Source: Bacillota bacterium (GTDB lineage: Bacteria; Bacillota; Bacilli; Paenibacillales; Paenibacillaceae). From it: 64,000 nt of DNA. Positions 19,849-26,503 of this stretch are shown one piece after another. The notes below the pieces were generated by a model. That model had not been told where the DNA came from, did no database searches, and worked only from the letters and a program-made list of their open reading frames with translations. The DNA is taken from the NCBI GenBank assembly GCA_051750645.1, contig JBNJJW010000023.1, positions 7,921-71,920 of the forward strand. The letters are read 5' to 3'. Position numbers and translations under genes: made by a program. Every line of letters begins with the position of its first letter. Position 1 is the stretch's first letter.

Positions 19849-22071
19849 TCAGGTAGATGCGCGAATCTCACGCGCAGCTTCACCAAAATCCGGAGGCGGA
19901 TCCCCGTTCGGGTCGAAATCCGGTTTCGGCGGGTAAGGCGTGCGCGGATTCGTTCCGCATACGTAGACGATGCCGTCCTCATAAACGATGTTGAATATCC
20001 GCTTGTTGCCGGTATCGTTGATTTGCCAATAATTCGCGGCGGAGATACGGGCAATGGCAGCAGCAGAGGATAGAACATACCCCCGTTTTTCAAACTGAGA
20101 TCGAATCGATAAGCTGATGGTTACGGCTCCCCCTGTCGGATCATCGCGATCCGGATCAGGCGCCGGGACTGCCTGCAAATCGGACAATATCGACACGTCG
20201 GTGAAACAAAGAGGGCCGAGCAGCTGCACGTTGCTGGTAATCGGTCCCCCCGACGAATCCGGCAGTGTGCAGTTCGCAAACCGGGTAGCGTCGTGAAGTG
20301 TAGGTCCCCACCGATAGGTGTATGATGTGCCGTCCTGCTCGTAAATACGCAGGAAATCGGAGCCGAACGAGAACAGTGCCCCGGTGAAGTTTACTTCTTG
20401 GAGATTTGCATTGCTGAAATTGGCCCCCTGCAAATAGGCCCCCGTAAAATCGACATTGGTCAACTGAGCGCCGGCCGTTCCCGTAAAATCGCTATTGATC
20501 AATTGTACCTGAGCGAAGAAGCAATATTGAATAGATGCATCCTTGAAGCTCATTCCGTTCAATACTGCAGACTCAAAATGAACGTTCTTCAGGTTTGTGT
20601 TGCCCTCCAGTGTCGCTTTGCTCGTCACCTCATTCCCATCTTTGTCTTTTCCGGTATAGGATCCGTAAAAATGAGCATTGCTGAAATAGCTTCCATTCAG
20701 CGTTACATTCGACATACGGGTTCCAAACATATATGCGCCGGAGAAGTAAGCCGCATTCTCTCCATCCGTACTGGTCGCGCCGTCGAAATTGCAGCCCGCT
20801 AAATTAGCCGCTTCAAAACGGGTCCCGATCAAAACGGTTTGGCTGAGATCAGCGCCCTCCATATTCGCTTCCTTGAATATGACATGGCTTAAATTTGCGC
20901 CATTCAACTCCGCATTCACGAGCTGAATGCCGGACAAATCGAGTCCTTGCGGGAAGACGGTATGGCGCGCCGTAAAATTAGAGCAATCCTTCGGTATATG
21001 TTGAAAAACGGCTCCGCTCAAATCCAAGTAGCTCCACGAGGATAGCGGAATGGCCGCAAAGTCGATCCGGCAGCCGCAAAACTTCGTCAGCTTTGCGGGG
21101 TCGACCGAAAAGCGCGGTTGCGAACCGAAGGCAGGTCCCCCCACACCGATCGAAGCTCCGGAGAAGTCGGTCCCTTCCATGGAAGCGCCGCTAAGGTCCG
21201 TCCCGTTCAGAATGGCTTCCTTCAAATCGGTATCGTTCAAGTTCGCGCGAGGCAATTTGCAATTGGCAAAGTTCGCCTTTGCAAGCACGGCGCTTTCAAA
21301 ATCGGCGTCCTCCGGGAGCTGCCAATCCGAGAAATCGGCGTCGGAGAAGTTGACCCAAGTAGCGGATTTCCAGACGGCGGCTTGCGGGTAGATGCTTCCG
21401 TTATTCTTGTTGGCCGTGGCGTCCAAAATGACGGACTTCCCTACATGCGCCTCGTCCAAGGGCCACCATAAGCGAAGGCCTTCCCGCTGCACGGTACCCG
21501 GGTCGCCCGGGACGGGTTCAAACATGAGCGTACGGACTTCATCCATCGTAAGCGCCCGATCCCAGACTTGAACGTGACGGACCAATCCGTAAAAGGATTG
21601 ATCCAGCGAATCCGGATTTCGCGTTCCGAAGATGAGGGTGCTTTGCGGCGGCAATCCTTGCCCCTCATCCCGGTAAACCGAATGATTCCCTTGGGCTTCG
21701 CCATCCTTGAATACACTTGCCCGGACGTCGTCGCCTGACTTAAAATCGAGCGTAATGGCAATATGGTGCCACGCTCCGTCCGCAAGGGAAACACCGGTTT
21801 TTGTGGTACTTCCGGAGAACGTCACCTGCAGGTTCGCCAAATTTTCAATGCGAAGCGAATTCTCATTATCCGTCGGAAATTGCTCGCTGTCGGAAAAGTC
21901 GTTATAGCTGAACAGGACCGCATTTTCCGGCTGAGCGTGTGCCTCCTGGTCCGGCTCCCATTTCACCCATGCGCACAAAGTAAACAAATCGTTAGGAAAT
22001 TGCGGGGCGGACTTGCCCAAGCGAATCGAAGTCTCCTTTAGGGCCCCGCCCAAATAATAGAAATTCCTCAT
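19849..22071 (-). CDS. LamG/concanavalin-like lectin domain plus long pentapeptide-repeat protein
   Basis: FTLCAWVK, WHHIAIT, VQVWDRALT LamG motifs; many A(N/D)(L/F)xx pentapeptides; Pro-rich C-terminus. Confidence 0.88.
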   Translation of the reverse strand: MRNFYYLGGALKETSIRLGKSAPQFPNDLFTLCAWVKWEPDQEAHAQPENAVLFSYNDFSDSEQFPTDNENSLRIENLANLQVTFSGSTTKTGVSLADGAWHHIAITLDFKSGDDVRASVFKDGEAQGNHSVYRDEGQGLPPQSTLIFGTRNPDSLDQSFYGLVRHVQVWDRALTMDEVRTLMFEPVPGDPGTVQREGLRLWWPLDEAHVGKSVILDATANKNNGSIYPQAAVWKSATWVNFSDADFSDWQLPEDADFESAVLAKANFANCKLPRANLNDTDLKEAILNGTDLSGASMEGTDFSGASIGVGGPAFGSQPRFSVDPAKLTKFCGCRIDFAAIPLSSWSYLDLSGAVFQHIPKDCSNFTARHTVFPQGLDLSGIQLVNAELNGANLSHVIFKEANMEGADLSQTVLIGTRFEAANLAGCNFDGATSTDGENAAYFSGAYMFGTRMSNVTLNGSYFSNAHFYGSYTGKDKDGNEVTSKATLEGNTNLKNVHFESAVLNGMSFKDASIQYCFFAQVQLINSDFTGTAGAQLTNVDFTGAYLQGANFSNANLQEVNFTGALFSFGSDFLRIYEQDGTSYTYRWGPTLHDATRFANCTLPDSSGGPITSNVQLLGPLCFTDVSILSDLQAVPAPDPDRDDPTGGAVTISLSIRSQFEKRGYVLSSAAAIARISAANYWQINDTGNKRIFNIVYEDGIVYVCGTNPRTPYPPKPDFDPNGDPPPDFGEAAREIRAST

Positions 22072-22090
22072 AATGCCGCACCTCCCCTCT

Positions 22091-25000: not shown

Positions 25001-26503
25001 ATACGCCCAAAACTTCCGGAATTCCCCCGTGTAAGGACCGTTATCCGTATCTCTCGCCTGTTTGATTCGAATCGGGTTGCCCTCGTGATCGACGGCATAT
25101 TTCAAGTAAGCGAAGCCTGATCCCTGCGATTTGATCGCATTGACCACATCCTGAAAGTATGGGGAAGCCACAATAATGCCTTTGATGATTCCGGCAATGT
25201 CCGGTTTTAAATTTATGATTTCCGGGTACGTAAAGATAATTTTTAAAGCCACGGCCTCCCAAGCGGAAAGCTTGGCGGTAGCATGCTCGTCCGAAGACGC
25301 CGCTTCAGCCGTTGCGGGATGATCGGTCGGGAAATGGATGCCGAAGTTCAGTAGCTTCCGCTCCTCCTCTGGAGCATCCGGTGCCAGGCTCGTGACCAAA
25401 TACGACATCAGATGCGACTTGGGAAAAGGCACGTCGTTTACATAATGCGTGATCTCCTCATCCGACACCGCGGACAACACGGGAGAACGCCTGGCTTGCA
25501 GCAAGCTTTCTTTCGTTTGAGGATGCAGCGGATACTGCCTGGAGCCGACCTGCAGCGTCAGAACTTCACCCGCTTCCGCATGCCGTAAATCAAAATGCAT
25601 CGTATGCAGCCGATGCTCCTGATTTGTTTCTGCTGCGTTCTTTACCGGATTCACGGCGTTTGCGATTTCCGAATTGTCATGAATGCCCGCCGCGTTCAGC
25701 GCGCAGCTTCCAAGATTTACACTTGTATCCCCCAATGTGTACAAATAGGTCGATAATTCGTGATAACAGAGAAGAGAGGAGCGGATTGGCATGTTGTGGG
25801 ATTGAATCGGGATGCCGCCATCCACCTGCATGTAACCAAACAAGGTCCCCGGCAGGTTCGGCACGGCGTCGGGTTCGTTATAAATGCGGAAATTGTTCGG
25901 AACCAGCGTGTCGTAGGCGGAAGCAAAAACAGAATCGCCGGTCATGGGAGCAGCAAACGTGTACACCTCGGGGGCATAGCCGTGATAGGCAAGCACTGCG
26001 CCATGCAGGTTCGCCAGCGCCCCCCCAAGACTGTGGCCGGTAATCGTCAACTCGGCTGCGGAATCTTGTGCCGGTATCAGCTCGTTCAGTTTTTTCCGTT
26101 CCCCGGTAACCGGATGGATGGCTGACAGAGACCTGTAGAGCTTCGTAAAGCCTCTTTCCGTGTTCCCTCCATTAGGAATTTCCGTAAAGGGAAGTTTGCT
26201 GATTTCGAGATCGTACTTCGCGTCCAAAATGCTGCTTGTCCCGCGGAAAATAATCCCTGTCTTCGTTTTGTCAGTGGATTGGGCGATGAAACCAATAAAC
26301 TCGGTTTCATCAATAAATTCTACAACCCCTTCCACATTCAAGTTCCATATGATGTTCCAACCGTCCGGAAAATCCGAAGGCTGCGGAGGGTTGGGATTCC
26401 AGCGGTTGTTCGTATACATGTCATAAGCTTTTTCAATCAGCCTGCCCCAAAAAAAGGCCGTTTCTTTATTGAAAGCCCTTACATTTTTAATTTTCTCTAA
26501 CAC
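22091..26503 (-). CDS. 1470-aa multidomain protein: lipase class 3 domain, unknown central region with hydrophobic helices, C-terminal NHL-like beta-propeller
   Basis: FRGT, TGHSLGG, DAVP and HELSTY lipase residues; GTG start with GGAGGAG RBS; propeller-like repeats (RPIAIG, FLDMAVE, KLTVD). Confidence 0.85.
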   Translation of the reverse strand: MLEKIKNVRAFNKETAFFWGRLIEKAYDMYTNNRWNPNPPQPSDFPDGWNIIWNLNVEGVVEFIDETEFIGFIAQSTDKTKTGIIFRGTSSILDAKYDLEISKLPFTEIPNGGNTERGFTKLYRSLSAIHPVTGERKKLNELIPAQDSAAELTITGHSLGGALANLHGAVLAYHGYAPEVYTFAAPMTGDSVFASAYDTLVPNNFRIYNEPDAVPNLPGTLFGYMQVDGGIPIQSHNMPIRSSLLCYHELSTYLYTLGDTSVNLGSCALNAAGIHDNSEIANAVNPVKNAAETNQEHRLHTMHFDLRHAEAGEVLTLQVGSRQYPLHPQTKESLLQARRSPVLSAVSDEEITHYVNDVPFPKSHLMSYLVTSLAPDAPEEERKLLNFGIHFPTDHPATAEAASSDEHATAKLSAWEAVALKIIFTYPEIINLKPDIAGIIKGIIVASPYFQDVVNAIKSQGSGFAYLKYAVDHEGNPIRIKQARDTDNGPYTGEFRKFWAYSDLTKARLVEPMKAILKDIKDHPDLKGWNWRIQPGTVSAPANAGNVQLRNAGTITVAEAVKLKGEADELKLSVTEVGPQAGISFELKNDTTDNRVCTFELTNHFLRYVSVYVQFLNDKGELVNPDLNFLFSNEDGQLRSEIEHATTDGAAIQDATRKLFEQSGGITLSQAATIQKKDGDYEITDGETRYPLRFDAADGPVRVYLYDKWKYTEDGFLQELAGELVKVGLETDRTRFIGYLSSIPVIMAVPTGWIRQTFTVPIPKGAQQVRVLAGGGMGAFYFSHDRMLFHEQKETITSCYLGWLLTGVINFTVPTVLLGMGVGDDGLSERLMKKALDGREGILVPLLTMAGSVLYFADVIAIGGDSQTGRSIMSTLTDSLVGFVLGNKTVQMVLSGILVKDMAEEDLPLVGAVMEALNVLGAAAEIAETIVEELVAPIVIENVIAITFDSTVTMAHDPLDHGFPATARWYEVEFQFTDGTTRTSDLQPVNRDGIQTDPISYVVPNLPASGEFSVLVNFYADGNPSNPTTATAIRNNPVGTAKSGIYDATKEEAKAIRLVIKEMIPKLSEETTYSQMTKLQFDGKAHIWNAKAELPGATVADLDPAGQQQSLSRLVGISIDQLSGQIAYAWRSPLQHVPRFDSGETPEQGDAHNLYTFQSVSAALPAERLYAFTNAGFTDQVLVCMELLPPEEPNAEAIRKQYEQNPDASVPQWKQLGLARPPYHFFIQPDVKGENYYARSAELTGDPAVFNLNQTTSWGVFPTAVDSLAIHPKGYLAATYYNEAKQATKLYLLKLPDQAVPDDKAPKPKLASGYGTRTNLLKRPIAIGCTGKGAILVLDAGLGNVQAFDYFGNAVQDYFTLADGSKSERMPLVAQQERETFLDMAVEHLGFIYVLLYENDGSKPEDYRLDIYTPEGKLLTSKAYDKPVPAGKLTVDLFRNLYTLNFEKQNGPGGRLEPTVSELIPSISES

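Follow-up and report, generated by a model that had tools for sequence, protein, structure and literature searches.

What is the function of an operon in which a large protein with a class-3 lipase at its N-terminus is encoded directly upstream of a pentapeptide-repeat protein? The question is raised by positions 19,849 to 26,503 of a 64,000-nucleotide stretch of DNA (the window) from a Bacillota bacterium of the family Paenibacillaceae (assembly GCA_051750645.1, contig JBNJJW010000023.1, positions 7,921 to 71,920 of the forward strand). An earlier note, made from the letters of this DNA, had described the pair as a toxin-like two-component system with a swappable N-terminal payload. The analysis presented here indicates that the operon is a one-off, lipase-carrying form of a core–pentapeptide system, that this system is widespread but undescribed, and that its core defines a large, unannotated family. 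The conserved unit consists of a core of ~1050–1200 residues and an obligate pentapeptide solenoid of ~600–800 residues, sometimes joined by a lipid binder in a ternary arrangement. The reading that we prefer, with a probability of roughly 0.45, is that of a horizontally acquired binary system of core and solenoid, which would act on membranes or lipids in a toxin-like antagonism and which in the present case is armed with a lipase.

22091-26503, minus strand: protein 1 (P0001), 1470 residues, from open reading frame and translation; class-3 lipase head fused to the family core
19849-22071, minus strand: protein 2 (P0002), 740 residues; LamG domain, pentapeptide solenoid and C-terminal domain
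19792-19823, strand not given: hairpin terminator 3' of the gene for protein 2, with a 14-bp stem containing 8 G-C pairs

The two genes are separated by a gap of 19 nt. The GTG start codon of protein 1 lies 7 nt past an AAGGAGG ribosome-binding site, the ATG start codon of protein 2 is preceded by a site of its own (GGGGAGG), and a single hairpin terminator is shared; all elements of the tight two-gene operon described in the earlier note were thus found again. Since both proteins have homologues, and the pairing recurs across many phyla, the operon does not represent chance open reading frames.

The family was delineated by an exhaustive HMMER search of representative clusters at the 50% identity level, with residues 291–1470 of protein 1 as the query. 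At E≤1e-3 this search returned 739 representative clusters, of which 302 remained at E≤1e-30, and most members have 1020–1200 residues; word-indexed homologue searches had given few matches (10, then 2), and the size of the family emerged from the exhaustive search. Homology of protein 1 to the other members begins at residue ~298, past the lipase and a linker. The best relative of the core (P0014, 1207 residues) begins directly with the core and is 43% identical over the entire core. From species-representative genomes, 64 loci were found with a pattern made from the C-terminal motif; they belong to Acidobacteriota, Myxococcota, Bacteroidota, Bacillota, Actinomycetota, Nitrospirota, Pseudomonadota and Chloroflexota, the Bacillota carriers being Paenibacillus, Tumebacillus and Clostridia. 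Protein 1 has the complete set of family features, namely the N-terminal region, the helical block, the β-sandwich, the NHL propeller and the C-terminal VDL(F/W)RNLYTLN motif.

Of the 66 loci in which the core was matched, 62 also have a pentapeptide gene on the same strand, at a distance of no more than 300 nt in 41 of them. Three of the four loci that lack such a gene have a core that runs into a contig end or stops less than 300 nt from one. The first three metagenomic contigs inspected likewise have one or two pentapeptide proteins of 600–770 residues adjoining the core. At least seven members combine the core and the pentapeptide protein in a single polypeptide (P0064, P0086, P0109, P0124, P0156, L074 of Nitrospira and L076 of Nitrosospira). 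In the last two of these fusions no hydrophobic segment separates the propeller from the partner part, which indicates that core and partner occupy one compartment. The pairing is kept across phyla at 24–45% identity; in the nearest locus (L015, from a metagenome-assembled genome of the Pyrinomonadaceae) the core is 42–45% identical to that of the window, and both genes are orthologous to the window pair. Co-occurrence of homologues had been proposed earlier as a check on the pairing; its frequency, its conservation between phyla and the natural fusions establish the two genes as a real functional pair.

No third universal gene was revealed by all-versus-all clustering of the neighbouring open reading frames. 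Among 145 flanking genes from 43 loci, analysed with Pfam, no family was enriched (the commonest occurred 3 times), and the genes did not point to secretion, phages or defence. The constituent domains are already known singly (class-3 lipase, LamG, pentapeptide solenoid, NHL propeller, BPI-like); the ~800-residue N-terminal part of the core and the obligatory tie between core and solenoid match nothing in Pfam, NCBIfam, PADLOC, the PDB or BFVD, and the searchable literature holds no description of the core–pentapeptide pairing.

Some loci depart from the simple two-gene layout. In Tumebacillus (L053, 1251-12962) tandem paralogues are found, with two cores flanking one pentapeptide gene. A 1482-residue family member is encoded on the megaplasmid of Xenorhabdus bovienii CS03 (NZ_FO818638; L079, 160645-177250), in a row with proteins of 525 and 419 residues, a collagen-like protein of 217 residues and a pentapeptide protein of 823 residues; the row lies between an IS6 transposase and a type I polyketide synthase. 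This Xenorhabdus protein was the single match in the plasmid database, and the phage database contained no homologue.

The lipase head and the linker that joins it to the core have the following positions, listed together with a related lipase from the same genome.

25700-26503, minus strand: class-3 lipase domain, residues 1–268 of protein 1 (PF01764; lipases of the PDB, E 8e-14)
26030-26032, minus strand: codon of catalytic Ser158 (GHSLGG), by alignment to class-3 lipases
25868-25870, minus strand: codon of catalytic Asp212 (EPDAVP), by alignment to class-3 lipases
25760-25762, minus strand: codon of catalytic His248 (CYHELSTYLY), by alignment to class-3 lipases
25613-25699, minus strand: polar linker, residues 269–297, read from the sequence
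G000:C8:87269-88036 (locus L005, 1483-2289), strand not given: standalone class-3 lipase of 268 residues, also without a signal peptide

The Pfam Lipase_3 model PF01764 matches residues 84–220 of protein 1 with an E-value of 2.4e-26 (92.7 bits, against a cutoff of 22). Ser158, Asp212 and His248 are invariant when the head is aligned with its paralogue from the same genome and with a Nitrosospira lipase. The motifs of Ser158 and Asp212 are both matched in the Thermomyces lipase, where the corresponding residues are Ser146 and Asp201. The triad picked out in the earlier note (GHSLGG, DAVP and a histidine) is therefore in place, and the lipase head looks catalytically intact. Its nearest relative within the genome is the standalone lipase listed above, which is 39% identical along the whole length and is likely to represent the source lineage of the fused head.

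The lipase head is absent from all of the top 150 other relatives, most of which start directly with the core. The conserved working unit is therefore the core with its pentapeptide protein, to which a single lineage added the lipase late. A separate class-3 lipase gene (272 residues, E 5e-25) is located directly 5' of the core–partner fusion in the Nitrosospira locus.

A second lipid-related module, similar to BPI/TULIP proteins (LBP_BPI_CETP_C-like), occurs in 9 of 67 loci, either as a gene of its own or as an N-terminal fusion. In Spirosoma, Acidobacteria, Hymenobacter, an actinomycete and a metagenome-assembled genome of the Clostridia it is a separate protein of ~590 residues, whose gene lies between those for the core and its partner. 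In L025 a partial copy adjoins the core at the contig end, and in L071 a BPI-like protein is found beside the core fragment. In a core subfamily of ~2200 residues (L003, L065, P0098) the BPI-like domain forms the N-terminal ~750 residues. The presence of two unrelated lipid-acting modules on one scaffold is the strongest clue to function. It was also observed that an Acidobacteria metagenome-assembled genome (L023, 11176-16876) has three BPI-like genes of ~590 residues in tandem.

The expectation that N-terminal domains vary while the partner is kept holds in part: a lipase is present here and a BPI-like domain in the ~2200-residue subfamily, whereas most cores have no addition at all. As a general rule, the swappable payload of an A-B toxin did not stand, given the top 150 relatives without a lipase and a helical block with no detectable relation to solved translocation domains.

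The architecture of the core was analysed with an AlphaFold2 model of residues 291–1470, built from a 53-sequence alignment, with a mean predicted local distance difference test (pLDDT) score of 74.9 and a predicted template-modelling score of 0.73. A second model, of residues 291–1100 without the propeller, had a pLDDT of 71.5.

24179-25612, minus strand: N-terminal region of the core, residues 298–775 (AlphaFold)
~24314-24646, minus strand: insert of ~110 residues within this region, residues ~620–730; low AlphaFold confidence, lineage-specific
23699-24148, minus strand: helical block, residues 786–935, with six to seven helices (hydropathy and AlphaFold)
23234-23689, minus strand: β-sandwich, residues 939–1090 (AlphaFold strands, pLDDT 75–93)
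22094-23233, minus strand: NHL six-bladed β-propeller, residues 1091–1470 (PDB profile and Foldseek)

Residues 291–540 are modelled as a confident α/β domain (pLDDT 80–93), and β modules are found at residues ~570–620 and ~735–775. The columns of the intervening insert are occupied in less than 20% of family members. The N-terminal region has no relatives in Pfam, the PDB or BFVD; no Pfam model matches the first 810 core residues in any of 48 family members, and outside the lipase head NCBIfam gave only sub-threshold noise on protein 1. The invariant residues of the N-terminal domain are scattered (H63, N313 and R317 in core numbering) and do not form a conserved catalytic constellation or a convincing active site.

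The block of hydrophobic and amphipathic helices that had been placed at residues ~790–945 is supported by both hydropathy and modelling. Kyte-Doolittle averages over 19-residue windows reach 1.6–1.9 at residues 800–823, 841–864 and 909–948. Two helices, at residues ~797–824 and 841–864, are of membrane grade and nearly uncharged, and are followed by acidic amphipathic helices. The hydrophobic character is maintained across the family: averaged over all members, the helix at residues 798–826 reaches a hydropathy of 1.64, and it is almost free of charged residues in each of them. AlphaFold places helices at residues ~786–935, with a pLDDT of 50–68.

The β-sandwich that follows has a weak, non-significant Foldseek likeness to membrane-binding sandwiches. 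With the sub-model of residues 291–1100, Foldseek reported clostridial alpha-toxins and domain 4 of cholesterol-dependent cytolysins, at E-values of 2e-3 to 1e-1 and template-modelling (TM) scores below 0.2; these matches are non-significant and were rejected. The same sub-model gave no PDB match at E<1e-3 and nothing below E 0.03 in BFVD.

The C-terminal propeller, proposed earlier without a type, is of the NHL six-bladed kind. A PDB profile search with the family core matched only NHL propellers (TRIM71, Thin and Brat; E 1e-18), and Foldseek with the whole-core model retrieved propellers only (E 1e-7, TM-score 0.6 on the target); the Pfam NHL model is below threshold on protein 1 as a single sequence. 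The end of the propeller carries the most conserved motif of the family (VDLFRNLYTLNFE...EPTVSELIPS), which is the motif that was used as the search pattern.

Protein 2 consists of three parts.

21535-22005, minus strand: Laminin_G_3/concanavalin-like domain, residues 23–179 (PF13385)
20347-21369, minus strand: pentapeptide-repeat β-solenoid, residues ~235–575 (PF00805)
19852-20346, minus strand: C-terminal domain, residues 576–740 (phmmer and pairwise alignment)

The identification of protein 2 as a LamG domain followed by a long pentapeptide solenoid is confirmed, both Pfam matches being above threshold. PF13385 scores 65 bits (E 1.1e-17; cutoff 27.6), and PF00805 scores 153 bits (E 9e-46; cutoff 20.2) in seven stretches that display the A(D/N)LXX repeat register. 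The LamG region also has a weak match to TafC fimbrial proteins in NCBIfam. A word-indexed search across 5.8 billion clusters retrieved neither a further protein with such an N-terminal region nor another LamG-solenoid partner. The LamG domain and the lipase head are probably both lineage-specific additions, judging from these comparisons. Among the fetched loci the C-terminal domain is shared with the L015 partner only (phmmer E 1e-9), and the two partners are 33% identical across 483 aligned residues, which span the solenoid and the C-terminal domain.

Partners in the Bacteroidota carry leucine-rich repeats. In most partners the position of LamG is taken by a common N-terminal domain of ~150–180 residues, with the motifs F-x-G-K-[YFW]-x-F or W-Q-F...Y-W-N-S...G-P-x-Q-T-F; it was seen in L015, L018, L020, L023, L032, L043, L060, L064, L067 and L079. 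The identification of this domain of ~170 residues as a β-trefoil-like lectin was considered and dropped, as Pfam and PDB profile matches were non-significant (best E 0.045).

Signal peptides and topology were assessed with a hydropathy heuristic rather than a dedicated predictor. At two Myxococcota loci, core and partner both start with lipoprotein signal peptides, and the Rhizobacter core has a lipobox signal of the twin-arginine translocation (Tat) type. Signals resembling those of the general secretory (Sec) pathway are present in 20 of 65 partners. Among the loci of this set, those from Bacteroidota, Rhodobacterales, Thermoanaerobaculia and SAR324 combine a core that has no signal with partners that have one of the Sec type (each of the two, if a locus has a pair of them); in the clade of Paenibacillus, Actinomycetota and Nitrospira, and in the window, neither component has one. 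Since some cores and partners carry export signals, at least part of the family acts outside the cytoplasm. Export of a folded core by Tat further argues that the hydrophobic helices can stay buried in a soluble state. In the Myxococcota cores (L016, 6756-10313; L021, 7791-11258) the lipobox is followed by an acidic, low-complexity tether of 80–100 residues (D-G-D / D-A-D) and then by the HFDL start of the core.

The distribution, phylogeny and genomic setting of the window pair make it probable that it came from outside the genus. A core homologue is present in only 3 of 60 related genomes searched, two of these being among the 36 genomes of the same genus; all three homologues belong to other subfamilies. 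In a tree of the cores, computed with FastTree alone and with long branches flagged, the window core groups first with the Pyrinomonadaceae protein as its sister (support 100) and next with the Myxococcota lipoprotein forms (97); it is placed apart from the Paenibacillus clade. The neighbouring araA is 96–97% identical in two close relatives (G006 and G009; blastn of the araA flanks), and similarity to both stops at window positions ~27154–27176, inside the following remnant.

26754-27230, minus strand: remnant of a DUF6431 open reading frame (PF20020, E 1e-24), at the edge of the strain-specific region

Window positions 9000–19800 have no close counterpart in the two relatives, and the DNA of these relatives past the araA breakpoint has no match within the window. 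The breakpoint at DUF6431, together with the unmatched region, indicates that a large strain-specific block begins just downstream of araA. The G+C content is 0.53 over 16–32 kb, versus ~0.43 around it.

How could such a pair act? In the reading that we prefer, the solenoid partner, here with its lectin-like LamG domain, would bind the core as a scaffold or targeting subunit, in the simplest case through the propeller or the C-terminal motif, which is the site of fusion in nature. The buried hydrophobic helices of the core would insert into a membrane, and the N-terminal Ser-Asp-His lipase of protein 1 would then hydrolyse membrane lipids; the BPI-like module, where present, would act on membrane lipids likewise. 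Antagonistic action on the membranes of other cells would be the most likely role, and is favoured because the pattern of occurrence is patchy, transferred and paralogue-rich and the binding domains are variable. Release of the signal-less Gram-positive version may need lysis or another route. The physical complex, the insertion into membranes, the lipase activity and the antagonistic role are all elements that we infer. More tentatively, the system may be a new class of membrane-targeting binary complex, in which the solenoid partner is obligate, a helical hairpin of the core stays latent until the target is reached, and lipid binders or a lipase serve as accessory weapons.

Several observations weigh against this reading. 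No small gene resembling an immunity gene is present. The N-termini of proteins 1 and 2 have no hydrophobic signal-like segment, in agreement with the earlier statement that neither has a Sec signal; most cores in the family lack a signal as well, Tat or Sec lipoprotein signals being present in 7 of 142 full-length representative cores. The signal patterns, as called by the heuristic, conflict between clades, and no single topology fits every one of them. Because its pLDDT is only 50–68, the helical block could instead be permanently anchored in the membrane or fold as a soluble bundle, and neither PDB profile nor Foldseek searches gave it a sequence or structure match to a known pore-forming or translocation domain. 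Finally, the family is also found in nitrifiers, rhizobia and roseobacters, which provide no specific pointer to a toxin.

Some of the same observations would suit a machine directed at the cell's own envelope or lipids, in which a helix-anchored resident protein and its partner remodel, sense or move the lipids or lipoproteins of their host. This explanation accounts for the recurrence of BPI/TULIP-like binders and lipases with the family, for the members exported as lipoproteins or through Tat, a trait of envelope proteins, and for the conservation of membrane-grade helices; it is also consistent with the lack of linked toxin-delivery or immunity genes and with the occurrence of the family in the non-predatory Nitrospira, Bradyrhizobium and roseobacters. 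We nevertheless consider it unlikely. The distribution is patchy and accessory (the 2 of 36 genomes of the genus given above), and transfer across phyla, a strain-specific site, tandem paralogues and a megaplasmid copy would be unusual for a housekeeping function. The accessory domains of the partner (lectin-like, leucine-rich repeat) vary, as they do in conflict systems.

In a classical single-chain A-B toxin, an enzyme payload would be carried across a target membrane by the helical block, receptors would be bound by the propeller and the LamG-solenoid protein, and payloads would be swapped between homologues. The order of enzyme, hydrophobic helices and β-rich C-terminus is indeed present, the N-terminal additions differ by subfamily (lipase or BPI-like), and the partner has a lectin-like LamG domain here and leucine-rich repeats in other lineages. 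However, a core that in most relatives bears no N-terminal addition works without a payload, and the sole other addition is a lipid binder rather than an intracellular enzyme. A lipase, moreover, acts on the membrane itself, so that translocation is unneeded. With no likeness to solved translocation domains and no secretion signal, by hydropathy, on the window proteins, we regard this explanation as quite improbable.

An abortive-infection role in defence against phages, raised earlier as an alternative, would have the propeller or solenoid sense infection, and the helices and lipase damage the cell's own membrane from inside. Membrane-disrupting effectors are frequent in defence systems, and the absence of an export signal from both window proteins and the accessory, transferred and patchy distribution would be in keeping with such a role. 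The solenoid also faintly matches the NCBIfam model of Hailong HalA (E 1e-5), but its 24.9 bits are far below the cutoff of 250, as is typical of a repeat cross-match. PADLOC-DB 2.0 gave no match for either window protein or for two homologous cores; the flanks are not enriched in defence genes, no phage homologues were found, and exported lipoproteins and Sec-signal partners are an ill fit for a cytoplasmic sensor. Genes of extracellular contractile injection systems, type VI and type VII secretion systems, phages or defence systems are not linked to the operon within the window. We thus hold the anti-phage role to be very doubtful, and the proposed release through a contractile injection system, which likewise has no genes in the window or among the 145 flanking genes, is not borne out. 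Least probable of all is a non-toxic surface complex for binding or sensing, that is, an adhesin or receptor with a tethered nutritional lipase: NHL, LamG and leucine-rich repeats are typical ligand-binding modules, the TafC likeness of the LamG region points the same way and exported forms exist, but the universally conserved membrane-grade helices, the missing anchors or export signals of most members and the recurring lipid-binding partner would all be left unexplained.

The preferred reading, a membrane-acting binary system, can be compared with several known systems. Class-3 lipases include fungal triacylglycerol lipases, plant DAD1-like phospholipases A1 and the type VI secretion effectors Tle2/TseL, and Tle2-type effectors use this fold against the membranes of other cells. 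Like Tle2/TseL, protein 1 has a full class-3 lipase, with the GHSLG serine, the aspartate and the histidine; unlike in Tle2, it is fused to a non-enzymatic core of ~1170 residues. In contrast to Tle/Tli pairs, there are no type VI secretion, VgrG or PAAR genes in the window or among the flanking genes of homologues, and the adjoining gene encodes a 740-residue solenoid protein rather than a small periplasmic immunity protein.

Among pentapeptide-repeat proteins, Qnr and MfpA are DNA mimics that act on gyrase, PipB2 and SopA are type III effectors, and HetL and HglK are cyanobacterial. Protein 2 shares the right-handed quadrilateral β-solenoid repeats (PF00805) of Qnr, PipB2 and HetL. It scores, however, far below the NCBIfam cutoff of every curated subfamily (for instance Qnr 55/240, MfpA 50/360, PipB 62/274, HetL 90/260); at 740 residues it is three times longer than the ~200-residue Qnr type, with LamG and an extra C-terminal domain, and unlike Qnr, MfpA and their kin it is tied to a core gene.

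The C-terminal 380 residues of the core form an NHL propeller like those of TRIM71, Brat, Thin, the PknD sensor and teneurin. The likeness is confined to the repeat: the preceding 800 residues have no counterpart in TRIM71, Brat, PknD or teneurin, and the context is not that of a kinase, a TRIM protein or a YD shell. TULIP proteins, among them the accessory proteins OrfX/P47 of toxin clusters in clostridia, occur beside some toxins, and the ~590-residue BPI-like proteins that accompany the core or are fused to it are a parallel in arrangement. The window operon differs from the BPI-bearing loci in having no BPI-like gene and a lipase instead. To the pore-forming domain of colicin, the diphtheria T domain and Bcl-2 the core bears a resemblance only, in its two long uncharged helices among amphipathic ones, within a protein that Tat exports in folded form in some lineages; it has no sequence or structure match to them, and membership is not claimed. 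Unlike single-chain A-B toxins, the top 150 relatives show no alternative enzyme payloads, the BPI-like binder being the only other addition.

One further element lies upstream of the operon.

26615-26662, minus strand: strong hairpin followed by a U-run, ~110 nt 5' of the start of protein 1 (sequence and fold)

This hairpin is most simply the terminator of an upstream unit; alternatively, it could be a leader or attenuator. It is situated downstream of a sigma-70-like site (26705-26678). As the hairpin cuts the operon off from upstream transcription, the operon promoter must sit within 26504–26615. No Rfam family matched the operon and its leader, the hairpin included. The neighbours of the operon in the window are araABD/araR, VanY/VanZ and a two-component system. 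A VanZ-domain open reading frame (18015-18911, minus strand) and the VanY frame (18569-19453, minus strand) overlap by 343 nt as listed; the start of the former is probably over-called, since the VanZ domain starts only at residue 172.

Pentapeptide-repeat proteins are very common, yet apart from the Qnr/MfpA type, which protects gyrase, few have an established role. The family described here ties hundreds of them, through adjacency and fusions, to one defined partner, and so places them in a testable context. The first ~800 residues of that partner are matched by no Pfam, NCBIfam, solved-structure, viral or defence model, although the soil and water bacteria that carry the family span at least eight phyla. 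Two lipid modules joined independently, membrane-grade helices and exported variants together point to an undescribed membrane-acting machine. If this is correct, pentapeptide-repeat proteins would gain a second general function besides DNA mimicry, and protein 1 would be the first natural lipase-armed form of the binary complex. The version in the window puts an assayable enzyme, with Ser158 at its centre, on the scaffold, and may thereby offer a direct biochemical entry to the family.

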